Counted from the stretch's first letter, positions 1,995 to 58,059 are shown. The stretch is 64,000 nucleotides of DNA from GCA_000146465.1 CP001949.1, one strand, 5' to 3'. Notes: generated from the sequence alone by a model not told the origin. A program made the numbers and translations.

Positions 1995-3896
1995 CTAGGC
2001 AACACTTGAATCATTTTCTGTTTCTGTATCATTGGGTCTACCATCGGCCTGGTAATCTCGCTTGTAGAAGAGTTCTCTGGACGTAAGAAGCATCGAGTCC
2101 TTTGACTTGAACTCGCTACAGTTGTTAAGGTGTTCAAATTCCACTCTGAAGATTGTCCATACAAATCTCCGGGTTATTTCCAGGAATACTATCCAGAACA
2201 CTGGGATCTCAAACCAATAAAAGAATACCCACGAAAATCTACACAGCACATTGAATACTATTCCGCAGCTATACGTACATCTCGGATATATCATCTTGCT
2301 TCGGATAATGCCCCAGTCCATAAATAGATCCCAAGTGGCAGAGTATATCGATGAGATGGTGATAACCATCATCTTATAGACAAACAATTCCCATGTTCTT
2401 TTTGTCGCATATAAAGGAATAGAAAATCCAGTCAGGATGGCAAAGGAGTACTTAAGGGCATTTGCAATGTGCGGAAACTTAAGACGGGTGTCTCTATAAC
2501 GCCTAATACATTGCAAGAACCTTATTATTGCAAAGAAAGAGTTGGCATACCCCTCTACCTTCCAATTGAGATGCCTCCCGCAGAAGAATATCTTCTTGAA
2601 GCAAGGCGTAAAGCTCTGGCCAACATCTGCAAAGTAGAAATGCCTGAATCTGACAAACGACATAGGAAACACAATTATTCTAAACACGATAAGAAGAAGA
2701 TAGAACCTCGACTCGTAGTGGAGTACTTTAAATGGAATCAAAATTATAAGGAGATGGCCCAGAAGTAGATAATATGGATTAAGATGCAAAAAGGAAATAT
2801 TGATCCATGTTCCAACCACATTAGCAAATATCGAGAGGGAAACCAGAAATAGATACTTATCTGAAGTCAGTGACGAGCACATATCGAAGTTGAAAATAAA
2901 CTTGTAGTTTATGTGGAATCTTTTGAATATAACGAGAGATGTTCCAAAAAGAAATGCCCCGTACTGTAGAAGTACCATAGAAAAAAACAGCTCCTTATCC
3001 ATCTGGCTCTTCCCAAAGTTAATTAGCCCCATCATCCCAAGAGATATCCCTCCCAGTGCACCAGACACATAAGAGATAAGGGGGTCTGCTTTGGTCTTGA
3101 CCCTTAATTTCTTGAATACCGTCTTTGCTTTGGCTGGGTTGTCTTTCGCAAACACGCTTCTGTAGAGTTCTTTTACAGACCTGTATATGTCGTCAATCCG
3201 CGAGGATTTGTTGAAGTACGACTCATTAACATTTCTAGAAAAATGCTCATGAAATCTTTCCTGAGGATACGCCTTGTCGTATTTCTTTGATAGCTTCATT
3301 AGCCCTGTGTAGTTCAACTCCCTAAACCTTTTGATGCTGATCACCGCATGAAGAAACTCTTGTATATTCTTCTCCCTTCTTCTTCTTTCCAAACGCTTGG
3401 AGATCTTGAATATCTCTCCAATGCCCTTTTCGTCTGTTCCTTTCCTTACCTTCTTAATCAAATACTCAAATCTACTGTTCCTATCTTCCGAGGATGTGCT
3501 CGACCCTTTGGAATCCTCATCATCTCCTTCCTCATCAAGCTCCATCTTCATATCCGACTTGACCCTTAGCCGATCCTGCTGGTCATCCCTCCCCATGCCA
3601 TAGTCGTCACTTAAACACATGGCTTTCTTTTGTGAATCCCTTATTCTCACTCCAGGGTCCTTTGGAGACTTTTCCTCAGGGGATACCCCGGCATCGGCAA
3701 ATATCTCCTCCTTTTCAAGCATAGCCTTCTTTTCCAGTAGAAAAAAGAAATCGTTTATCTTCCGAAGCTCACCATTAATCCGAGTTTTGAACTCCTCTCT
3801 ATCCTGGCTCAACAGGGGTTTGAGGGTTTCATAGGATACATAATTATCCTTCCACTCATCGACTTGGTTTGCCCTCAAAGTGTTGGAAAATCTCAT
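1995..3896 (-). CDS. SPX-EXS domain protein (XPR1/SYG1/PHO1-like phosphate exporter family)
   Basis: N-terminal SPX signature MRFSNTLRANQVDEWKDNYVSYETLKPL. Multi-TM C-terminal EXS region ending ...SATWDLFMDWGI.... ORF track extends to 4001; the conserved SPX start MRFS is at 3896. Confidence 0.8.
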   Translation of the reverse strand: MRFSNTLRANQVDEWKDNYVSYETLKPLLSQDREEFKTRINGELRKINDFFFLLEKKAMLEKEEIFADAGVSPEEKSPKDPGVRIRDSQKKAMCLSDDYGMGRDDQQDRLRVKSDMKMELDEEGDDEDSKGSSTSSEDRNSRFEYLIKKVRKGTDEKGIGEIFKISKRLERRRREKNIQEFLHAVISIKRFRELNYTGLMKLSKKYDKAYPQERFHEHFSRNVNESYFNKSSRIDDIYRSVKELYRSVFAKDNPAKAKTVFKKLRVKTKADPLISYVSGALGGISLGMMGLINFGKSQMDKELFFSMVLLQYGAFLFGTSLVIFKRFHINYKFIFNFDMCSSLTSDKYLFLVSLSIFANVVGTWINISFLHLNPYYLLLGHLLIILIPFKVLHYESRFYLLLIVFRIIVFPMSFVRFRHFYFADVGQSFTPCFKKIFFCGRHLNWKVEGYANSFFAIIRFLQCIRRYRDTRLKFPHIANALKYSFAILTGFSIPLYATKRTWELFVYKMMVITISSIYSATWDLFMDWGIIRSKMIYPRCTYSCGIVFNVLCRFSWVFFYWFEIPVFWIVFLEITRRFVWTIFRVEFEHLNNCSEFKSKDSMLLTSRELFYKRDYQADGRPNDTETENDSSVA

Positions 3897-4143
3897 CCTT
3901 TTATGGGTGACATATTTTCTCCAATTCAAGTCCAATTGGAAAGAATCGAAAGACAGATGGAAAAGCTTTGCACTGGAATAGGGAGGATGGTGGAGCAGCA
4001 TTCCAAGATAGGAAGGTTTCTAATAGCCCAGGAAAAGATATTAACCAGAAGAACACAGACCCTCCAAAACGGAGAGGCGCTTTGAATCCAGCTCCAAGTT
4101 CCATCAAGTTTTTATCTAGCTTCCAAATGACGTCCCACCCCAT

Positions 4144-12116: not shown

Positions 12117-12695
12117 ATGTCGGAACTGAATGGTCTTGAGGAGAATAAGCTTGACGGAAGTTTGAAAGAAAAAGATGTTGGCAACGACAACTCTGAGAGC
12201 GGAAAGACTTATAAGAGCACTAAGAAGAGAATACTGTCGATGAGAGACGAGAGTAAAGAGAATCCCAAACAAGTTAGGATGAGTTCATATTATGAAAAAA
12301 AGGCTGAAGAGTCTGGGATTCGAGGTGGGGACGAAAAAGGCGGGAAGAATGGTATACTGAAGCAAGCAATATGGAGAAGGGATCTGTCATACATCAGTGA
12401 GTTTCTGTTGAGAAAGGACAGAGGTCTAATGCTGAAAACATTGTCGTATGAAGACAAAGAGGTGCTAGGGGAGATACTCCTTGAATTTGTTGACCAGCCG
12501 TTGCGGATCGAGGCACTGGAGACTATGAGAGAGATTGTTTCGAGCATAAAGAATGTCGGATTATTTATTAGAAAGCTGAAGGAGAGAGCCATTGATTTCT
12601 CAAAGCTGATTTATTTGAAAGGTAAGATCGACTACCTAAGATTTACAGCAGGAAATCAAGAGGAGAAGGAGCCTGAAATAACTGTCAAGGGATAA
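12117..12695 (+). CDS. hypothetical protein (192 aa), basic/acidic, likely nuclear
   Basis: Single clean ORF; no family assigned. Confidence 0.35.
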   Translation: MSELNGLEENKLDGSLKEKDVGNDNSESGKTYKSTKKRILSMRDESKENPKQVRMSSYYEKKAEESGIRGGDEKGGKNGILKQAIWRRDLSYISEFLLRKDRGLMLKTLSYEDKEVLGEILLEFVDQPLRIEALETMREIVSSIKNVGLFIRKLKERAIDFSKLIYLKGKIDYLRFTAGNQEEKEPEITVKG

Positions 12696-12849
12696 CTTTT
12701 GCTCGGCCTTATCTAGTGAGGGGTGAAACACAGTAAAAAGTCCAATGGCGACGTTTATGATATGAAACACGTCTGGATCTGAAAGTACTGGATTGGTTAC
12801 ATGTGTTACAGAATAAATATAAAAGAAGCATTCTCATCTGTATAACAAT

Positions 12850-13173
12850 ATGGCTGACTCAGCAAACGAAAACAACACTTCTGGAGACAGTGGAAACAAC
12901 AAAGCCAAGAGAAACACAATAATCGGAATTATTGTATGTGTGGTTGTTATCACAATTATTCTTGCCATCGGTGCCAAGAGAGGATGGTTTGGAGGAAGCA
13001 ATGGCGGAGCTGGAGGTTCTCCTAAGGGAGGAAAGGTTGGAGATTTGTCTGAATCATCCAAGTCTAAGCTATCTGAATCCAATAAAAAGAACTCAGCCAA
13101 GAGCAGTGGAAAGGAAGATGAAGAAAACAGTACCAGCGGTGGTATGGGGCAGTCTTCCAATCTTTATGGATAA
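12850..13173 (+). CDS. hypothetical small single-pass membrane protein, low complexity
   Basis: One strong TM helix (IIGIIVCVVVITIILAIG) flanked by G/S/K-rich sequence; antisense ORF 12834..13160 rejected. Confidence 0.3.
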   Translation: MADSANENNTSGDSGNNKAKRNTIIGIIVCVVVITIILAIGAKRGWFGGSNGGAGGSPKGGKVGDLSESSKSKLSESNKKNSAKSSGKEDEENSTSGGMGQSSNLYG

Positions 13174-14128: not shown

Positions 14129-14788
14129 ATGGGAAGAAGGCCAGGAAGGTGCTACAGATATCTGTCGAAGAAGGCATATCCGAAGTCAAGGTTTAACAGA
14201 GGAGTTCCGGACTCCAAAATACAGATTTTCGACCTTGGAAGGCGTAAAGCAGGAGTCCTTGAATTTCCACTACTGGTCAACTGCATCTCAAATGAGAGAG
14301 AGAACCTGTCTGCAGAGGCATTGGAGGCAGCCCGTATATGTGCCAACAAGTATATGGTAAAGCATGCAGGAAAGGACAACTTCCATCTGAGAGTCCGTGT
14401 TTATCCGTTTCATGTTCTTAGGATCAATAAGATGTTGAGCTGTGCAGGAGCCGATAGACTTCAGACAGGAATGAGAGGATCCTTTGGAAAGCCTTATGGA
14501 AGGGCTGCAAGGGTTGTCTTTAACCAGCCTATTCTCAGCATAAGAACAAAGGACACTTTCAAAGATGTGGCCATTGAAGCATTAAGGAGAGCAAAGAACA
14601 AATTCCCTGGACATCAGAAGATCCAGGTTAGCTCGAAGTTTGGATTCACAAACATGTTACGGGATGAATTTACTTCTCTAAACGAGAATGGGAAGATCAT
14701 CCTAAGGGGAGGGTCTTTTTCTGTGGTCAAAGAGAAAGGGAGCATTGACAACTTCAAGAAAAATCTCGAACAAGTTGCCAACAATTAA
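14129..14788 (+). CDS. RPL10: 60S ribosomal protein L10 (uL16)
   Basis: [11 protein letters not shown]...[26 protein letters not shown] is near-identical to eukaryotic uL16. AAAATTTT and CCC upstream of ATG. Confidence 0.9.
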
Positions 14789-28600: not shown

Positions 28601-29148
28601 ATTCTCTGGAAACATTCAAGAGGATGGAAAAGATGGCCGAGTTTCCATTTAGCAAGCCGTTGAAGTTTAGGAAGGGGCCTGGAATGTCGTTTTCCATGTC
28701 GAGGAGAGAGGACATAGGAAATCACAATAGGAAGGTTTTTGAGGCCATAACGGCGTTGAGAAAAGACCCCAATGCTCTAACGTATGTGAAAAACCCTGAT
28801 TTCTTTGAAGACAGTTCTGAAGAGGAGGAACGCTCTGAAAACAGGTATGTAGTTAGAGAGACCATCAAATGCAAATACTATGACGATGGAAAATACAACT
28901 TCTTTGGAAATCTTGTCCTTCGAGGATTTTCAAGAAGTGGCCTGAATTACATTAATATGAGAGAAGGAGGAAATATTATTTTCAAAGACCTCGAGAAGAG
29001 CCAGATGAAGTTAGCCTATAGTAAAGGAGAAGATTCGATCTACATGCTGATGGAGAAGACCATGATGATTTACAAAATTGTTTGTAGGCATCCTATGATT
29101 GCATCAAGTATATACAAACATCTAATGGGAGATGAGTCTGATAGTTAA
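28516..29148 (+). CDS. hypothetical protein, 3' segment (frame 1) of the same probable gene
   Basis: Same strand, overlaps previous ORF by about 85-100 nt in a different frame; no independent promoter spacing. Confidence 0.35.
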   Translation: MLSRGNIQVPDKVFWSGVPKRRDNDEFMNSLETFKRMEKMAEFPFSKPLKFRKGPGMSFSMSRREDIGNHNRKVFEAITALRKDPNALTYVKNPDFFEDSSEEEERSENRYVVRETIKCKYYDDGKYNFFGNLVLRGFSRSGLNYINMREGGNIIFKDLEKSQMKLAYSKGEDSIYMLMEKTMMIYKIVCRHPMIASSIYKHLMGDESDS

Positions 29149-33116: not shown

Positions 33117-34055
33117 TTAGGGTCTTTTCATTTCTTTTCTCTCTTTTGTATAGAGTTCATGGGACTCTTCAAGGTTTAGTGGGATATAGGTGTTTTTATA
33201 GCTGGAGATGATGGGGAAGTGCCTGGAATTTGCCACAGACAATCTCTTCCTACTTGTTAGGCAGAGAAACCCCGAAAGAACCTTTAGCTCTTCCTCGTCA
33301 AACAGATTCCCATACTTCTCTCCAATTATAACTTGAGCGTCTTTGGTTTTGGAGTAAATTTCCACATCAAGCAAATCAGACCACTTGTATCTGTCCTGAG
33401 GGGCCCCCAACTCCTCGAATATCAGCTTTATTTGTGACACTTCGTCATTTCCTCTGTATGGCGGTCTCCCAAGTCTCATTTCCAGCATTATACATCCAAC
33501 AGACCATGCATCTATCTTGAAGTTATAGGATGTCTCCCCGAGTAACAACTCCGGTGCTCTGTACCAGAGTGTGCACACTCTGTTTGTCATCATCCCCGAA
33601 ATCTCTCTGGTTAATCCAAAATCTGTAAGCTTTAGCATTCCATGATGGTCTATTAGGATATTGCTAGGCTTTATGTCCCTGTGTACCAATCCTAACTCAT
33701 GCATCGAACTTACAGCCTCTATGAGCTGCGATATGATAGATCTTGTGTGTTCGTTACTGAGCTTGGTCCCCGACGCAAGAAGCCCTGTTAGATCATATGG
33801 CATGTACTCGAGAACAACAAATATAAAGCCTTCCTCGAATACAATTTCGTTGAGCCTTATTATGTGCTTATTAATTACACTCTTGCAGAGCTTTATTTCC
33901 CGTATGGCCGTGAACGGGAAGCCTGTTTCTCTATCTACAGGCATCTTCTTAATTGCAAACACGGTTCCATCGGCTATCCTTCTGGATTTATACACCTGCC
34001 CAAACGCTCCTTCCCCCACTTGCTTAATATTTTCATACTTCTCCATCAGGGTCAA
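33117..34055 (-). CDS. cyclin-dependent kinase, CDK9/Bur1- or Kin28-like transcriptional CDK
   Basis: GEGAFGQVYK, PFTAIREIKL (compare CDK9 PITALREIKIL), HRDIKPSNILID, DFGLTR, WYRAPELLLG. Confidence 0.8.
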   Translation of the reverse strand: MTLMEKYENIKQVGEGAFGQVYKSRRIADGTVFAIKKMPVDRETGFPFTAIREIKLCKSVINKHIIRLNEIVFEEGFIFVVLEYMPYDLTGLLASGTKLSNEHTRSIISQLIEAVSSMHELGLVHRDIKPSNILIDHHGMLKLTDFGLTREISGMMTNRVCTLWYRAPELLLGETSYNFKIDAWSVGCIMLEMRLGRPPYRGNDEVSQIKLIFEELGAPQDRYKWSDLLDVEIYSKTKDAQVIIGEKYGNLFDEEELKVLSGFLCLTSRKRLSVANSRHFPIISSYKNTYIPLNLEESHELYTKERKEMKRP

Positions 34056-34149: not shown

Positions 34150-34857
34150 TCAATCCCTAGCAGATGATATATTATCTTCGCTTCCTTCGCTATCGACCAA
34201 CTCGGAATCAATGAGATTGGATTTTTTCTTTTCCTTCTTATCTGAAGGCTTCCCCCCTTTCTTTTCTTCAGGATTTCCTCCTTCATCCCCTCCCTTGTTT
34301 CCCTTTCCATCGCCTTTGTCTTGGTCTTTTGGCTTTTCGCTGGCACCAGAATTTTTATCTTTAGAGTCCTTTCCGTCCTTTCCATCCTTTCCCTTTTTGC
34401 CATCATCTTCTTTTGGTTCTTCCATTGAGCTACTATTGTTTCCACTCCAGAGTTTAGAGCGATGAGTAAGAGAAGAAGAGTTTCCATCCTTGCCACCCTT
34501 CCCATCTTTCTTTCCATCCTTGTCACCTTTCTTTCCATCCTTCTCGTCCTTGCCATCTTTCTTTCCATCCTTCTCGTCCTTCTTTCCATTCTTGTCATCT
34601 TTATTTCCATCCTTCTCGTCCTTGCCATCTTTCTTCCCGTCCTTGTCATCACCGTTCCCATCTTTGACATTAGAAGAAGATAGACTTGATTGTCTTAGAC
34701 GGTGTCTTCTCAAATTTGTTAGGTTTGAGCCATGATGCCCAATTCCATGTATCCTTTTAAGGGCCTTTGCCATGAGAAGTCCTGAGACAAGTATTAGCTT
34801 CTTCATGTTTATTTTCCGTTCCTTAGTATTTATATTTGATTCTAAAACATGTTTCAC
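34150..34857 (-). CDS. secreted low-complexity K/D/G tandem-repeat protein
   Basis: Signal peptide MKKLILVSGLLMAKA, then about 15 iterations of KDGKKDE/KDGNKDD-type units encoded by a DNA tandem repeat; ORFs in other frames of the same DNA rejected. Confidence 0.55.
   Translation of the reverse strand: MKHVLESNINTKERKINMKKLILVSGLLMAKALKRIHGIGHHGSNLTNLRRHRLRQSSLSSSNVKDGNGDDKDGKKDGKDEKDGNKDDKNGKKDEKDGKKDGKDEKDGKKGDKDGKKDGKGGKDGNSSSLTHRSKLWSGNNSSSMEEPKEDDGKKGKDGKDGKDSKDKNSGASEKPKDQDKGDGKGNKGGDEGGNPEEKKGGKPSDKKEKKKSNLIDSELVDSEGSEDNISSARD
34483..34668. repeat. imperfect tandem repeat (unit about 15-45 bp, tttccatccttctcgtccttgccatctttc-like) inside gene 34150..34857
   Basis: Visible periodic reiteration of ccatcctt/ctcgtcctt/gccatcttt blocks on the + strand. 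Confidence 0.6.
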
Positions 34858-34995: not shown

Positions 34996-35799
34996 TTAAC
35001 TTTTTATCAACGGCTTGGATATCCCGGTATTTTCGATTATTTCAAGGTACTCGTCATATGTCATTTCTACAGCAAGATGCCCTATTTCCCCTTCTTCCGA
35101 AGTTTTAGAAATGGCATATAGAATCCCATCGTCATATTCCATGGATACAAATCCAGACCTTAGGGAAAGTGACAGATAGAATATGTTCTCAATAGTCTTT
35201 GAGAATGACTCTGGATTAATTACAAGCCTGAAGTATTCTATTCTGTCCCTTTCCGAAACCAATCTCCTGATTTGCATGAGAATCCCTGACTCTTCTGTAG
35301 AATCCTTTTCCCGAGTAATTAGTACTGGAATTTCTGCAGCAGGAAGGTGTTGTCTTGATCTTTGAACCTGGGATCTTTTTCTACTCGGGGCTTCTTCAGA
35401 AAAAACTAGAGAAAAACAATTTAGAAACTTCATTCCTGCATTACATTTCATGGCATATCTGTAGAAGTCGTCGAGAAGGCTCTTTCTAAACAACTCGACA
35501 AATGTACTCGATGTAATGTCCTCCAAATCGATGTCTTTTTCCATCCTCGTCCATGCCAGCTTTGTCCACAGAGCATTCATCTTTGCATCGAGCTTAAGCT
35601 CAGAAGATGTTTTGATCTTCCTAAACAGCATGTTGGATGTGTTTATTAACTCCTCCAATCTAGACTTGTCCTCGAGAAGGTCTTCTCTCTGAAGTCTTAT
35701 TTTCTGGAGAAGATCCAAATAATCGTTTCGCACTCCACCTTCGTCTGGAGAAAGCTCACCACCGTTCATAGCCCTAGGATGTTTTTCCGGTAATTTCAT
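34996..35799 (-). CDS. possible Nse4/EID3-family kleisin (SMC5/6 complex)
   Basis: C-terminal SFSKTIENIFYLSLSLRSGFVSMEYDDG resembles the Nse4_C signature (sF.qTVENlFylSFLvkdG); otherwise divergent. Its ATG shares one nucleotide with the stop of the upstream gene (TAATG). Confidence 0.4.
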   Translation of the reverse strand: MKLPEKHPRAMNGGELSPDEGGVRNDYLDLLQKIRLQREDLLEDKSRLEELINTSNMLFRKIKTSSELKLDAKMNALWTKLAWTRMEKDIDLEDITSSTFVELFRKSLLDDFYRYAMKCNAGMKFLNCFSLVFSEEAPSRKRSQVQRSRQHLPAAEIPVLITREKDSTEESGILMQIRRLVSERDRIEYFRLVINPESFSKTIENIFYLSLSLRSGFVSMEYDDGILYAISKTSEEGEIGHLAVEMTYDEYLEIIENTGISKPLIKS

Positions 35800-43144: not shown

Positions 43145-43585
43145 TTGAAGAAGGAAAGAACAGGAGGTGGAGTTCAAAACATGATGTTTTTAACGATATT
43201 TGTATTTTGGATAATAGTCGGTAGCTCGAACGCTGACGAGGAGCTGAAGGAGTTTATAAAAAAGTCTATAAAAGAAGAAGTTACGAAGGAGATGTATGAA
43301 ATTGTGGAAAAGACCACAAAAGATATGAAGGAAGATATGGAAAAGAAGATTGACGAATTTATGTCAGAAAAAATCCCGGAGCACGAGGAAAAGGTTGTGT
43401 TAGAGGAGGAAAAGGTTGTATTAGAGGAGGGGCAGGATTTGGAAGAGGAAGAAGAGTCTTCTGCAATGACTATTTTGAAGAAGGCTGGGGAAGCCCTTGC
43501 CATTGTAGTTATATGCATATTGATTGTGTTTTTGGTCTCAAAGATTTTGGAATACTACCGAAGGTTAAAGGACTGCTCTGAATGA
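43145..43585 (+). CDS. hypothetical E/K-rich membrane or secreted protein
   Basis: Hydrophobic leader MMFLTIFVFWIIVGSSNA, internal EEKVVLEEEKVVLEE duplication, C-terminal TM helix. Confidence 0.35.
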   Translation: MKKERTGGGVQNMMFLTIFVFWIIVGSSNADEELKEFIKKSIKEEVTKEMYEIVEKTTKDMKEDMEKKIDEFMSEKIPEHEEKVVLEEEKVVLEEGQDLEEEEESSAMTILKKAGEALAIVVICILIVFLVSKILEYYRRLKDCSE

Positions 43586-53787: not shown

Positions 53788-54411
53788 TTATAGGACCTCT
53801 GTTCTGGGCATCTTCTCAAGCTCCTTGTTCAGCCATCTGAATGCATCGATGATTTCTCTTCCGTTCTCATCGTTGGCCGAAGTCATCGATCCCGCCTGAA
53901 GAACACTTATCGGCACAACAAGTGATGGCCCGCTGTACTTCTCAAGGCCAAACTCGTTCTTGATACTCCTCATCACCTCACTCCTCTCATGTTCTTTCAC
54001 CAGGTCAATCTTGTTTGCAAGCACCAGCAGCGGCCTGGGGCTGTTCAGGATGTTCAGTATCCTCCACAATTCCTCGCTCGACTTTCCAAACCTCTGCGGA
54101 TCTGCACAATCAACCATGTATATGATCCCACATCCCTCGTTGATGTACTGATGCCAGAACCTCATGAATGAGTTCTGTCCTCCGATATCCCACACTTGGA
54201 ACTTCATGCTCCCCAGACTGACATTTTCGCAGTTGAACCCAAGTGTTGGGACGGTTTGGTGGACTTCTCCAGTCTGCAGATACAGTAAAAGAGTTGTCTT
54301 CCCGGCACCGTCTAGGCCTATCATGGTTATCGACCTCTCAGACTGTCCAGAGAATATTGCTCGGAGCCTTGTGTACAATATATTGTTTACCTTGGAGATC
54401 ACTGCTCCCAT
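53788..54411 (-). CDS. ARF-family small GTPase (Arf/Arl)
   Basis: MG N-terminus (myristoylation-type), P-loop GLDGAGKTT, WDIGGQ switch II, NKID guanine-specificity motif. Confidence 0.8.
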   Translation of the reverse strand: MGAVISKVNNILYTRLRAIFSGQSERSITMIGLDGAGKTTLLLYLQTGEVHQTVPTLGFNCENVSLGSMKFQVWDIGGQNSFMRFWHQYINEGCGIIYMVDCADPQRFGKSSEELWRILNILNSPRPLLVLANKIDLVKEHERSEVMRSIKNEFGLEKYSGPSLVVPISVLQAGSMTSANDENGREIIDAFRWLNKELEKMPRTEVL

Positions 54412-54577
54412 TGTTTACCCCCGATATTTTTGTTTTTTATATGGCCTGTTTTAATTCCTCATGGCTTTATCTTGGAGTGTGCATGGGAACAAGGGAGAGG
54501 AAAGATCAAACAAATTCAATACACATTCTCGGAATGAAACAAGGAAACAATATAAGAGAGATAAGCTTTAGAGGGCC

Positions 54578-55693
54578 ATGAGAAGAACATTAGGAGCGGT
54601 ATTAATTTTTGCCTTGAAGATGGCATGCGACGTGATAAGGCTTGTTCCAACATGTGATGCGGAGTGCATGAGGGGAAGACTCTTGGCCTCATATTACTCA
54701 AGTCCTGCCGGCGTGAATCTTCTGCAGACGGCAGCCAAAAATGCGCCAGCCAAGAATCTTGTAGGGGGCAAGGTGACGGTGGTGGGTTTGAGCAGCCGCA
54801 GTGCAAGTAAGCCTCCGGCCCCAAGGACGCCTGGAGGAGGGCAAATAACTGTAACAGCCACTGTTGTGAAGACTGTGCCGATGGAGATACCTCGAAGTGT
54901 GCAACCGCCTGTTGTGGTGCTACAGCCCAGATATCTTGTACAGCCAATGCCTATTCCGGTGAATGCAATGAGTGTGGCTACAGTACCAAAGAGGAATGCA
55001 AAGCCACTCCCTGCAAGGCATGTTGTGGAAGAGAAGCCTCATGGGGAGAATGAGATGATCAACAGGATAGGAAGGAAGGTGAACCTAATATATACCATGT
55101 TAAGTACTCTAGGACAGAGATATCTTCAGATGCCTCCGCAGACGCCAAGGGTTGTGTTGGTTGCACCTGTTTCTACAAGGACAGTCTTCAAGACAGTGTC
55201 GTCTCCTGCGCCGGCGAGAAGCAGCGCTCCTGCTTCGACACAATCTGCCTCGGTAATCACTCTTACAAAATGCATTTTCTTGCCTCCTCAGACCGAGAAA
55301 AAACCCCAAGCACAGACTTCCAGCACCAGCACTAGCACCAGCCCCGTGTCCTCTGCAAAGGAGACTCTGGGGGGAAATAAGACGGTGGGCCCTAGAAGAA
55401 TTCCCAAGAAGCCGCGGAATATAGATTTCGGAGAGAGCAGCAGCTCGGAAAGCTCCATGTCCGAGCAAAGGGAGGAGAAGCCTCTGTACATGTTGAAGTC
55501 CACAGGGCCTGGGCGAAAGAAGAGGAGAAGAGGAGATCCATTTATTGATTGTTATTTGAAAGGAGATCCATCCACCAGATGCACGTCGGACAGTTCCGAG
55601 GGGAGGCCGGACATAGGCGATGCAGTTATCTACAGGAGCGATCTCGACAGCGGCGACGAGATCATATATCTTAGTGAGCTGTTGCAAGGATGA
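54578..55693 (+). CDS. hypothetical P/S/T/V-rich protein within GC-rich island
   Basis: Longest sense ORF between the ARF GTPase and the convergent CDC7 gene; antisense ORFs here are attributed to GC-richness. Basic KKRRRG patch near the C-terminus suggests nuclear localisation. Confidence 0.35.
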   Translation: MRRTLGAVLIFALKMACDVIRLVPTCDAECMRGRLLASYYSSPAGVNLLQTAAKNAPAKNLVGGKVTVVGLSSRSASKPPAPRTPGGGQITVTATVVKTVPMEIPRSVQPPVVVLQPRYLVQPMPIPVNAMSVATVPKRNAKPLPARHVVEEKPHGENEMINRIGRKVNLIYTMLSTLGQRYLQMPPQTPRVVLVAPVSTRTVFKTVSSPAPARSSAPASTQSASVITLTKCIFLPPQTEKKPQAQTSSTSTSTSPVSSAKETLGGNKTVGPRRIPKKPRNIDFGESSSSESSMSEQREEKPLYMLKSTGPGRKKRRRGDPFIDCYLKGDPSTRCTSDSSEGRPDIGDAVIYRSDLDSGDEIIYLSELLQG

Positions 55694-55731
55694 CGGCAAC
55701 ACACACCAAATATTATTAAAGCATGTGTTTT

Positions 55732-56850
55732 CTATGCAGGGTCCCGATGTGTTTTCAAGCCGTCGAAGAATGGATGGTTGAGGGCGTCTGGAGCAGTGAT
55801 CCTGGTTGAAGAGCAGAGATCAAGCATCCTGTAGAGCAGGTCGTATCCCTCGGAGCCGACCTCGGCCCACGGGTTAAGCGACTCGATAATTGTCTCGAAG
55901 GGGATTCTCTCCTCGGGAATTGTGTCTATGTTCGACCTCCACAGTCTTCCGTAGAACTTTGCAGCCTTTCTCATTTCTGCGTGTCCAAAGATCGTTGCAA
56001 TCTCGACAATGGCGTCGATATCCTCGGACGAGTAGAAGAAGGGATATTGTGCAGTCAGGATCGTCAAGAAAATCACCCCCACAAACCACATGTCTATGGC
56101 TCTGGTCTGGTGAGGGTAGCGGAACAGGACCTCTGGTGCTCGGAACCCACGTGTCCCGGCCCGAGGAGCCTTCATCTGCGGCCTGGAGTCTCTCTCGTAG
56201 TATCCCGGAGGCTTTGTCTTCGACACAATCGAGTTGAAGAAGAGCAGGGGTGTCTGGGGCTTGCTACTGTCCTTTGGAAGATGTTCCTCCCTGCGGTCTT
56301 CGTACTGGGCAAGCCCAAAGTCTATGAGCATCCCTCTTCCAGTCTCCTTATTGTACAGAAAGTTCCCTGGCTTCAGGTCTCTGTGTATTATGCCATTGCC
56401 ATGCACATGGTCTATCGCTTCCAACAGGTTGTACAGATACTGCTTGATGTCATTCAGGCCTGCATTGGAAATAAACTCCCGGAAGTCGATGGGCTTGAAG
56501 TACGGAAAGACAGCAATCACCTGGTCTTCGTTCCGGAAAACCCCGAGAAGCCCCATGCAGTTCCTCTTTCCCTCAAGTGCCTTCAGAAACGTCAGTTCCT
56601 CGAGAACCCTTGCTGGAGAGCTGGTTCTTGTTATTACCTTCAGAGCGACATGTCTCCCGGCCTCTGCATCAAGGGCCTTGTACACAACACTGAACGACCC
56701 TTCGCCTATTTTTTCTATGGGCGTGTACTTTGGTATGATGAAGGACAGATGCTTGAGGTCGGACTCTGGGATCTTTTCCTCTTCCATCCCCCTTTCCAGG
56801 TTTTTTATTTTAAGATTGGGTGTGGCTCTGCCATACCGATTGTCTTTCAT
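55732..56850 (-). CDS. CDC7: CDC7/Hsk1-like protein kinase
   Basis: [39 protein letters not shown] (the FLYN + G-x-L-x-DFGLA pattern is characteristic of Cdc7), kinase insert before [13 protein letters not shown]. Confidence 0.7.
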
Positions 56851-56862
56851 GGCTGGAAGGGG

Positions 56863-58059
56863 ATGGAGATAAAGGGTGGGAAGGGTAGCCCTTTAATGTG
56901 TGGAGGACTCAAGGCCGATCTGTTTGTTAGATACAAACAAATGGAAAGAAAGCTCAAGCTTCTCGAGATAAGGGAGGCGTATGTGCGCAAGGAAGTGGAG
57001 ACGCTGAGGAGGGAAGAGAGACACAGCAAAGAGGAGCTGGATAGAGTCAAGAGTGTTCCGTTGATAATGAGGCAGTTTCTGGAGCCTATCGACAACTCGA
57101 CAGCAATTGTGGGGTCGACAGCAGGGAGCAACTTTGTTGTCCGAATACTGTCTACTGTGGACCGAGAGCTGCTGAAGCCAAACACTACAGTTGCGCTGCA
57201 CAGACACTCGAGTGCGATTGTGGATGTGCTCCCTCCGGAAGTGGACAGCACGATTCCTGTAATGGGGGAGTCTGAGAGGCCGGAGGTGACGTATGCAGAT
57301 GTGGGAGGGCTGGATGTGCAGAAGCAGGAGATAAGGGAGACGGTTGAGCTTCCTCTGCTGCAATCTGAGTTGTACAGACAGATAGGAATTGATCCTCCGC
57401 AAGGGGTGCTGCTGTACGGGCCGCCTGGAACGGGGAAGACGATGCTTGTGAAGGCTGTGGCGAACCATACAAAGGCTACATTTATAAAGGTCAACGGGTC
57501 TGAGTTTGTGCAGAAGTATCTTGGAGAGGGCCCGCGGATGGTGCGGGATGTGTTCAGGCTTGCAAGGGAGAAGGCGCCGTCGATTGTGTTTATCGACGAG
57601 GTGGACTCGATAGCAACAAAGAGATTTGATGCGTCGACATCTGCAGACCGGGAGGTGCAGCGGGTGCTTATTGAGCTGCTGAACCAGATGGACGGATTTG
57701 ACCAGACGGCAAATGTCAAGGTGATCATGGCCACAAACAGGGCAGACACAATCGACCCTGCACTGCTCAGGCCGGGACGGTTGGACAGGAAGATAGAGTT
57801 TCCGCTTCCCGACCGGAGGCAGAAGAGGCTTGTGTTCAATGCCATCACATCGAAGATGAGCCTCAAGGACGAGGTTGACATTGAGAGCCTTGTGTGCAGG
57901 CCCGAGAGGATAAGCTGTGCAGACATCAATTCGATCTGCCAGGAGGCGGGAATGCTTGCAGTGCGGGCCAGCAGATACATGGTTACGCAAAAGGACTTTG
58001 AAGAGGCATACTCAAAGGTTGTTGAGAGAAGCGACACAAGGCCTGCATTCTACAATTAA
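56863..58059 (+). CDS. RPT3: 26S proteasome regulatory ATPase subunit Rpt3 (PSMC4)
   Basis: Near-collinear identity with PSMC4 across the AAA domain: [144 protein letters not shown]. The track ORF from 55981 includes spurious GC-rich upstream extension antisense to CDC7; start set at first ATG after CDC7 (56896 is the alternative). Confidence 0.9.

Follow-up and report, generated by a model that had tools for sequence, protein, structure and literature searches.

Few spore wall and polar tube proteins of Encephalitozoon are known, and these few are the main handles for diagnostics, for studies of adhesion and invasion, and for an account of how the polar tube is built. Among the polar tube proteins, PTP1 contains more than 10% proline and has terminal cysteines, and PTP2 is a basic, lysine-rich protein of the approximately 30 kDa class with conserved cysteines, its gene being linked to that of PTP1 on chromosome 6. 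Of the spore wall proteins, SWP1 and SWP2 combine a cysteine-containing N-terminal domain with C-terminal Gly/Ser repeats, and EnP1 is Cys-rich and has heparin-binding motifs of the types XBBXBX and XBBBXXBX (PMC7040029). EnP2/SWP3 ends in a membrane or glycosylphosphatidylinositol (GPI) signal, and the ricin-B-lectin (RBL) proteins, which resemble PTP4, PTP5 and PTP6, are built on a β-trefoil. The gene considered here lies on chromosome 8 of E. intestinalis, a human-infecting microsporidian, between the genes for Nse4 and a cyclin-dependent kinase (CDK). It was found in a stretch of 64,000 nucleotides from CP001949.1 (assembly GCA_000146465.1), which we call the window, and its coding sequence (positions 34150–34806, minus strand, including the stop codon at 34150–34152) encodes a protein of 218 residues.

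We conclude that this is a real, conserved and uncharacterised gene, already annotated as a hypothetical protein. With a probability of roughly 55%, we read its product as an abundant, sporogony-induced protein of the secretory pathway, an intrinsically disordered polyampholyte whose conserved ends carry opposite charges and which would serve as a structural or matrix component. The gene is a well-defined candidate for a component of the spore or invasion apparatus; in E. cuniculi, transcripts of the orthologue exceed those of PTP1 and PTP2 in level and rise together with them.

The protein has a mass of 23.4 kDa, a predicted pI of 9.2 and a grand average of hydropathy (GRAVY) of −1.84. It is rich in Lys (22%), Gly (16%) and Asp (15%), contains only four Pro (1.8%), and has no Cys, Tyr or Phe. 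It is not PTP1, from which it differs both in Pro and Cys content and in position, the PTP1 gene being next to that of PTP2 on chromosome 6. There is a partial likeness to PTP2 (ECU06_0240 / Eint_060140), in that both are small (about 25–30 kDa), basic, Lys-rich and induced between 24 and 48 h (4.4-fold for PTP2 and 4.9-fold here), and in that PTP2 has a signal peptide and the present protein a signal-like N-terminus, but the present protein is a disordered polyampholyte encoded on another chromosome, and none of its orthologues contains Cys. SWP1, SWP2, EnP1 and EnP2 have signal peptides, to which the signal-like N-terminus here may correspond, and are likewise of low complexity or repetitive and among the top sporogony transcripts. 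Their repeats are, however, Gly/Ser-rich, whereas those described here are K/D/G repeats in the centre of the protein, and SWP1 and EnP1 are Cys-rich. In contrast to EnP2/SWP3, the C-terminus is acidic and hydrophilic (net −6), with no second hydrophobic stretch.

With the RBL genes Eint_081670 and Eint_081680 the locus has in common its neighbourhood, the TGAAAC-TATA promoter described below and a short signal-like N-terminus. However, Pfam gave no RBL hit at E ≤ 1 in six orthologues, compared to 6.8e-08 for Eint_081680, and the AlphaFold2 model is disordered, with no β-trefoil or other β structure. Identity with PTP6 was considered and rejected, the published orthologue of NbPTP6 being Eint_081680, an RBL protein 7 kb away at 27256–27858 (PMC7493173). 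Published tables of SWPs and PTPs do not include the gene (PMC7040029), and a literature search with the E. cuniculi, E. intestinalis, E. hellem and E. romaleae locus tags found no main-text mention in the searchable open-access literature. Membership of a named PTP or SWP family is not supported: the protein lacks Cys, an RBL domain and a GPI signal, and the locus is a different one. The original prediction had proposed a secreted spore-wall, polar-tube or secretome component, and what stands of this is a probably secreted protein of the spore stage, which conservation, expression and promoter all support.

Expression was taken from the E. cuniculi table of fragments per kilobase per million reads (FPKM) of Grisdale et al. 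2013, using the whole table for ranks. The order of genes at the E. cuniculi locus is RPL6, CDK, the 242-residue orthologue, Nse4, TBCC, a diphthine-ammonia-ligase-like gene and G6PD, with no room for others. According to Supplementary file 16 of Heinz et al. 2012, RPL6 is ECU08_1780, the CDK9-like gene is ECU08_1790 and G6PD is ECU08_1850; between the last two the FPKM table has exactly four tags, ECU08_1810, 1820, 1830 and 1840. From the gene order and these four tags we infer that the orthologue is ECU08_1810. Its FPKM values at 24, 48 and 72 h are 1117, 5445 and 5658, compared to 607, 2672 and 2939 for PTP2, 660, 2522 and 2683 for PTP1, 201, 519 and 574 for PTP3, 8505, 22259 and 22703 for SWP1, and 9119, 24265 and 23714 for EnP1. 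The neighbouring genes are flat and low (80, 81 and 83 for CDK; 107, 87 and 88 for Nse4). A lack of expression would have refuted the original prediction; the orthologue is decisively expressed, ranking 7th in abundance at both 48 h and 72 h, and 11th by mean FPKM. Its induction, 4.9- to 5.1-fold at 48 and 72 h relative to 24 h, is larger than that of PTP1, PTP2, SWP1 or EnP1; the SWP and EnP genes rise about 2.6- to 2.8-fold, which places ECU08_1810 nearer to the polar tube genes. Grisdale et al. 2013 singled out PTP2 among the strongest inductions and reported that 10 of the top-twenty genes encode hypothetical proteins; ECU08_1810, which is absent from the ten that are named, should by its rank be one of the hypothetical ones.

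Two further genes in the same table deserve mention. The ORF (open reading frame) at 43181–43585 (plus strand) encodes 134 residues, and its N-terminus, MMFLTIFVFWIIVGSSNA, is strongly signal-like; its position suggests that the counterpart is probably ECU08_1885, whose FPKM goes from 168 to 1018 to 766, the 6.0-fold rise from 24 to 48 h being the largest that we noticed among well-expressed genes. ECU08_1550 is very abundant and sporogony-induced (2715, 12059 and 11563). Counting genes back from RPL10 (ECU08_1570, at 14129–14788), its orthologue is expected at approximately 12117–13173 (plus strand), an uncertain placement; the candidate ORFs near there have no Pfam hit and no signal-like N-terminus.

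The protein is modular, and all of the modules are given here by their coordinates on the minus strand. Codons 1–15 (MKKLILVSGLLMAKA, 34762–34806) form a probable cleavable signal peptide, identified by hydropathy and kept in all orthologues. They are followed by a basic His-rich module (codons 16–47, 34666–34761), recognised from alignments, charge and a motif scan, which has a net charge of +6, four His and no acidic residue, and which contains the sequences LKRIHG and RRHR. The first of these fits the heparin-binding-type pattern XBBXBX; counting His as basic, LKRIHG or FKRLHG occurs as a match to this pattern at residues 16–21 in four of six species scanned. Block 1 (codons 48–107, 34486–34665), delimited by Tandem Repeats Finder (TRF), autocorrelation and a codon-shuffle test, consists entirely of K, D, G, N and E. 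Its 60 residues have a net charge of only +1 and a charge-patterning parameter kappa of 0.04, with a charged fraction of 0.72 compared to 0.49 for the whole protein. Alignment then shows a Ser/Asn-rich linker with a conserved SSSLT(H/N)xS sequence (codons 108–133, 34408–34485), and repeat and charge analysis a second, less regular block rich in K, D, G and E (block 2, codons 134–196, 34219–34407), which includes (KDG)x3 encoded by three copies of 9 bp. The protein ends in an acidic tail of net charge −6 (codons 197–218, 34153–34218), defined by alignment and charge, in which the motif SNL(L/I)DSE(L)(V)DS(D/E) is conserved. The stretches IHGIGHHGSNLTNLR and SNLIDSELVDSEGSEDNISSAR are peptides unique to this protein.

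Pfam identified no domain in the protein or its orthologues. The AlphaFold2 model, calculated from the single sequence, has a mean predicted local distance difference test (pLDDT) score of 52, with helices only at residues 3–19 and 27–38. The protein is thus predicted to be an intrinsically disordered, well-mixed polyampholyte, in keeping with the earlier description of an extremely charged protein with no globular domain.

Block 1 is encoded by an imperfect DNA tandem repeat of 72 bp in 2.2 copies (88% identity, TRF score 242), within which TRF also detects nested periods of 21, 30 and 51 bp. The self-identity of block 1 at a shift of 72 nt is 0.81, compared to 0.56 ± 0.02 (maximum 0.68) in 2000 codon shuffles, none of which reached the observed value. 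An imperfect tandem repeat in the DNA had been predicted, and is therefore present beyond what composition would produce. The higher-order unit in the protein is 24 residues long. The prediction of about 15 KDGKKDE-like repeats agrees with the number of K-led micro-units of three to four residues (KDG, KKDG, KDE), of which there are 17 in block 1 and 16, less regular, in block 2, but not with a count of heptads, which gives approximately 8.5.

Protein homology searches with the 218-residue query, using a word-indexed phmmer and an exhaustive phmmer against 1.84 billion representatives, gave no match. Exact look-ups showed that none of the orthologues is in the 15-billion-protein collection, although their neighbours are and GenBank assemblies annotate them; the phmmer results consequently carry no weight. 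Orthologues were instead located by synteny, using the neighbouring genes. They are present in E. hellem (222–223 residues in three isolates), E. romaleae (229 residues), E. cuniculi (242 residues) and three relatives assembled from the Sequence Read Archive (SRA): L007 (247 residues as called, 230 from the homologous MKKL start), L009 (259 residues) and L008 (a fragment). In the alignment the modules follow each other in the order hydrophobic N-terminus, basic His-rich module, charged middle, SSSLT(H/N)xS patch and acidic tail. The family is lineage-restricted, repetitive and charged, as had been predicted, and its members across seven genomes keep the signal-like N-terminus.

The conservation is unevenly distributed. 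The His-rich module has the consensus KRxHGxxHHxSxLxNL(K/R)(K/R)H..., with a net charge of +6 and no acidic residue before position ~49, and dN is 0.06–0.29 here as against 0.34–0.82 in the middle of the protein. In the charged middle, composition and length are retained but sequence is not; the regular tandem repeat is found only in E. intestinalis, the other species having short, weak arrays. Over the whole gene, dN exceeds that of the CDK neighbour about tenfold and that of Nse4 about threefold. The dN/dS ratio is 0.10–0.33 in the N-terminal third (52 alignment columns) and 0.2–0.4 in the middle where dS is unsaturated. We found no evidence for positive selection, dN/dS being 0.2–0.5, with dS saturated in the middle region. 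Judged from these alignments, it is a fast-evolving yet constrained coding gene.

In an AT-rich microsporidian (GC 0.19; locus L012), a gene of 164 residues next to Nse4 (3432–3926, plus strand) has a hydrophobic N-terminus, is K/S-rich, and contains an internal NLIDSLSSD that resembles the C-terminal SNLIDSE motif. We considered it as a distant relative, and the similarity is too weak for such a claim.

The signal peptide was judged by textbook rules, namely hydropathy and small residues at −3 and −1. The N-terminus has an MKK n-region and an h-region, LILVSGLLMA, of 10 uncharged residues with a mean Kyte-Doolittle value of 2.6, followed by AKA, the predicted cleavage point lying between this and the next Leu. 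This places A-K-A at −3 to −1, and small residues at −3 and −1 are kept in every orthologue. The two most distant orthologues have canonical 17-residue signal peptides, MKRLLFASGLLMTNVLA and MRRILVASGLFMTGVLA, each with RR immediately after the cleavage point. By the rules alone, all three expected features (a basic n-region, at least seven hydrophobic residues, and small residues at −3 and −1) are found in every orthologue. The signal peptide that was originally predicted is supported to this extent, and we put the probability that the protein enters the secretory pathway at about two in three.

The promoter provides a further line of evidence. A TATA box, TATAAA (34829–34834, minus strand), has its first T at −28 from the ATG, in the context TATAAATA, and is kept in all seven orthologous promoters. 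Its position matches the TATA peak at −27 reported for N. ceranae (PMC2685015) and places the 5′ end of the mRNA just upstream of the ATG at 34806. Farther upstream, at −50, alignment identified a conserved element, TGAAACATGTTT (34845–34856, minus strand), a 12-mer that is unique in the window and contains the perfect palindrome AAACATGTTT. About 35 bp further upstream, GAAAC recurs in degenerate form in most orthologues.

The combination of TGAAAC and TATA boxes is not confined to this gene. The window contains five instances of the composite TGAAAC-N8-30-TATAAR, where 0.68 would be expected, and none of 100 shuffles reached five. In four of the five, the TATA box is at −27 or −28 of a gene with a signal-like N-terminus, these being the present gene, Eint_081680 (the proposed PTP6 orthologue), 54578–55693 and 61118–61903 (which has a weak RBL hit). 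In E. cuniculi, all four tandem RBL genes have the composite (0.01 expected). Taken alone, sense-strand TGAAAC is found at −80 to −35 of seven out of 58 ORFs (0.58 expected), of which five are signal-like compared to 13 of the 58 overall (Fisher p = 0.0045), signal-like being defined here by a crude hydropathy threshold. The arrangement seen is TGAAAC(A) approximately 15–25 bp upstream of a TATA box at −27/−28, before genes with signal-like N-termini; the sites in the window are 34845–34856 and 27913–27918 (minus strand), 54535–54540 and 61076–61081 (plus strand), and a site upstream of the ATG at 62050 (plus strand), and those in the E. cuniculi locus (L014) are at 2947, 3709, 4478 and 5305 (plus strand).

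We suggest that the TGAAAC-TATA module may mark a late secretory regulon. The TGAAAC(A) core equals TGAAACA, the element through which Ste12 acts in the yeast pheromone response. A transcription factor annotated as STE12, NP_586509, is present in E. cuniculi (PMC2474625). If the module proves to be genome-wide, it would be the first candidate cis-element for stage-specific transcription in these parasites, and would point to this annotated Ste12 homologue as the regulator. In E. intestinalis, the RBL/PTP genes are upregulated in the sporoblast cluster P4, and GFP fused to the first 40 residues of their products is secreted in a heterologous assay (PMC11972355). Taken together, the larger fold-change and the shared promoter lead us to lean towards a late, polar-tube-type wave of expression rather than the earlier spore-wall wave.

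The RBL genes at this locus are themselves arranged in tandem. Eint_081670 (26434–27138) and Eint_081680 (27256–27858), both on the minus strand, are neighbours, and at the matching place in E. cuniculi (L014, 3001–6083) there are four tandem RBL copies, which by inferred numbering are ECU08_1700–1730. Three of these four rise 1.7- to 3.2-fold during infection.

A mechanism consistent with these observations would be as follows. The TATA promoter with its TGAAAC(A) element would switch the gene on with the late (sporont/sporoblast) secretory programme, and the first ~15 residues would act as a signal peptide. The mature product of ~22 kDa would be a disordered, well-mixed polyampholyte, expanded and hydrated, with a conserved basic His-rich head (+6) and an acidic tail (−6). 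It would be deposited while the spore is being built, as part of a structure or matrix; the candidate sites are the polar tube or polaroplast, the wall of the spore, and the lumen of the vacuole. The opposed charged ends may be sites of attachment or self-association, the charged repeats acting as a spacer. On this basis the protein could plausibly be a component of the spore, the polar tube or the vacuole matrix; what we infer rather than observe directly is that the N-terminus works as a signal peptide, that the protein is secreted, that it has a structural role, and that head and tail associate. A more specific version is correspondingly doubtful: that ECU08_1810/Eint_081760 is an unrecognised major Encephalitozoon spore component (of the polar tube or polaroplast, the wall, or the septate vacuole matrix), assembling without Cys through electrostatic head-to-tail contacts between the basic N-terminal module and the acidic C-terminal tail, and that its gene is part of a late secretory regulon whose mark is a Ste12-type TGAAACA some 20 bp upstream of TATA.

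Several points weigh against a secreted structural component. The expression figures are for the E. cuniculi orthologue and not for E. intestinalis itself. The h-region is short, at 10 residues, and the K, R and H directly after it are atypical of a signal peptide; the flanking charges are roughly balanced, so that topology rules do not decide the matter. The first 47 residues, which are basic, rich in Ser and Leu and free of acidic residues, could also be taken for an organelle presequence or a bipartite nuclear localisation signal (NLS). The promoter association comes from a few genes in one 64-kb window and one E. cuniculi locus, with a crude flag for signal-like N-termini. Finally, the lack of Cys means that no disulfide linkage is possible, unlike that thought to operate for PTP1/PTP2 and SWP1/EnP1.

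One alternative is that the protein is not secreted, the N-terminal helix being a membrane anchor or amphipathic, and that it is produced in quantity inside the cell for spore dormancy, either as a hydrophilin- or LEA-like protectant or as a K-rich nucleic-acid or chromatin factor. We regard this as improbable. By the compositional definition alone the protein is a hydrophilin (Gly 16%, where more than 6% is required, and GRAVY −1.84), and it is like the hydrophilins and LEA-type proteins in its extreme hydrophilicity, high Gly and Lys, disorder, and accumulation as the dormant stage forms, the gene being strongly induced as spores are made. A short hydrophobic run followed by basic residues, with AlphaFold2 helices at residues 3–19 and 27–38, would also suit a protein that stays in the cell. 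On the other hand, no LEA or dehydrin motif was found by Pfam, and the contiguous uncharged core with its small −3/−1 residues is conserved and becomes canonical in the distant orthologues. The promoter module, too, is one shared with signal-like proteins.

If the protein is secreted, it might function outside the spore, as a host-exposed or vacuole-lumen effector or matrix protein in which the basic module and the Lys-rich repeats target host structures or the septate fibrillar matrix of the E. intestinalis vacuole. Fast evolution and lineage restriction combined with a conserved N-terminal module would be expected of such a protein, as would the XBBXBX pattern in four of the six species and the sequence KR-N14-RRHR, which is bipartite-NLS-like or polyanion-binding in character. 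In other intracellular parasites, exported proteins typically contain charged repeats of low complexity. In Plasmodium, the exported Lys-rich repeat protein KAHRP has a signal, a His-rich basic region and charged Lys-rich repeats, a likeness to the present protein in layout only: both organisms are intracellular parasites, but they belong to unrelated lineages, the proteins are not homologous, and the comparison is an analogy. We know of no export motif in microsporidia, and there is no direct sign of export here. Since abundance and induction kinetics match those of structural spore genes, and RBL genes of the polar-tube type have the same promoter module, we think an effector function unlikely.

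Two further alternatives carry very little weight. The first, that the 47 acid-free residues are a mitosomal targeting presequence, draws on the absence of D or E before residue 49, the nine K/R and five His, and the two predicted helices; but the 10-residue hydrophobic run (mean Kyte-Doolittle 2.6) is signal-like and not amphipathic, Encephalitozoon mitosomal proteins to our knowledge largely lack presequences, and a K/D/G polymer of top-10 abundance has no plausible mitosomal role, which makes it very improbable. The second, that the protein is a precursor cut at its KK sites by a Kex2-type dibasic protease into short peptides, would account for the KK pairs found every 7–10 residues behind a signal-like N-terminus. 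It was rejected as slighter still: Microsporidia are reported to lack KEX2, KEX1 and STE13, and a search of E. cuniculi and E. romaleae found no repeat proteins of this kind (PMC6339444). Moreover, E. intestinalis alone has a regular repeat, so that the species have no conserved peptide unit in common.

The gene model itself is well defined. The coding sequence was taken from the ORF list, and the same product is found in four assemblies. The ORF had been listed as extending to a GTG start at 34857, that is, with an in-frame extension of 51 nt above the ATG at 34806, from which the protein begins MKKLILVSGLLMAKALKR (MKKLILVSG...). Other assemblies annotate the identical 218-residue product, the homologous ATG is the start in all orthologues, and the upstream 51 nt are conserved in seven species as DNA (the palindrome and TATA box) and not as codons. 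We therefore take the ATG at 34806 as the true start and reject the extension as coding; the originally predicted ORF was correctly placed on the minus strand, its extra 51 nt being promoter. A chance open frame in purine-rich low-complexity DNA, as the several overlapping ORFs in other frames and on the opposite strand might suggest, is effectively refuted by the start codon, both termini and length kept in frame across seven genomes, by dN/dS below 0.5, by the conserved promoter, and by an orthologue FPKM above 5000.

Both flanking ORFs were matched to annotated proteins of E. intestinalis strain ATCC 50506. On one side is Nse4 (Eint_081770, ADM12109; ORF 34996–35799, minus strand), whose product falls in the 90%-identity cluster of the 257-residue ADM12109.2, the called starts of the two being different; on the other is the cyclin-dependent kinase ADM12107 (ORF 33117–34046, minus strand), which is an exact match. 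From the accession and tag numbering of these neighbours, the gene is probably ADM12108/Eint_081760.

It had been suggested that variation in repeat number would make the locus a strain-typing marker. This is not supported, because the four E. intestinalis assemblies, a small sample, encode an identical 218-residue protein with no variation in copy number. The only difference between the window and GCA_051312795.1 is a single synonymous nucleotide change at 34384, and among the E. hellem isolates a single residue varies, which is not in the charged block. A literature search on strain polymorphism gave nothing useful. The repeat copies have diverged by 12%, as would be expected if the duplication is old and has become stable.

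Elsewhere in the window, the region 54000–58000 has a GC content of 0.50–0.52, compared to approximately 0.40 in other parts, and contains long ORFs that overlap on both strands. Ribosomal DNA was considered as the cause and rejected: Rfam found no rRNA in 54–58 kb, and Pfam shows ordinary genes there, a proteasomal AAA ATPase (plus strand) and a protein kinase (minus strand). The overlapping ORFs at 28079–28600 and 28516–29148 (both plus strand) correspond to one gene of 356–359 residues in another E. intestinalis assembly and in E. cuniculi, which suggests a frameshift in the source of the window, either real or an assembly error; such a frameshift would explain the extra locus tag in the ATCC 50506 numbering.

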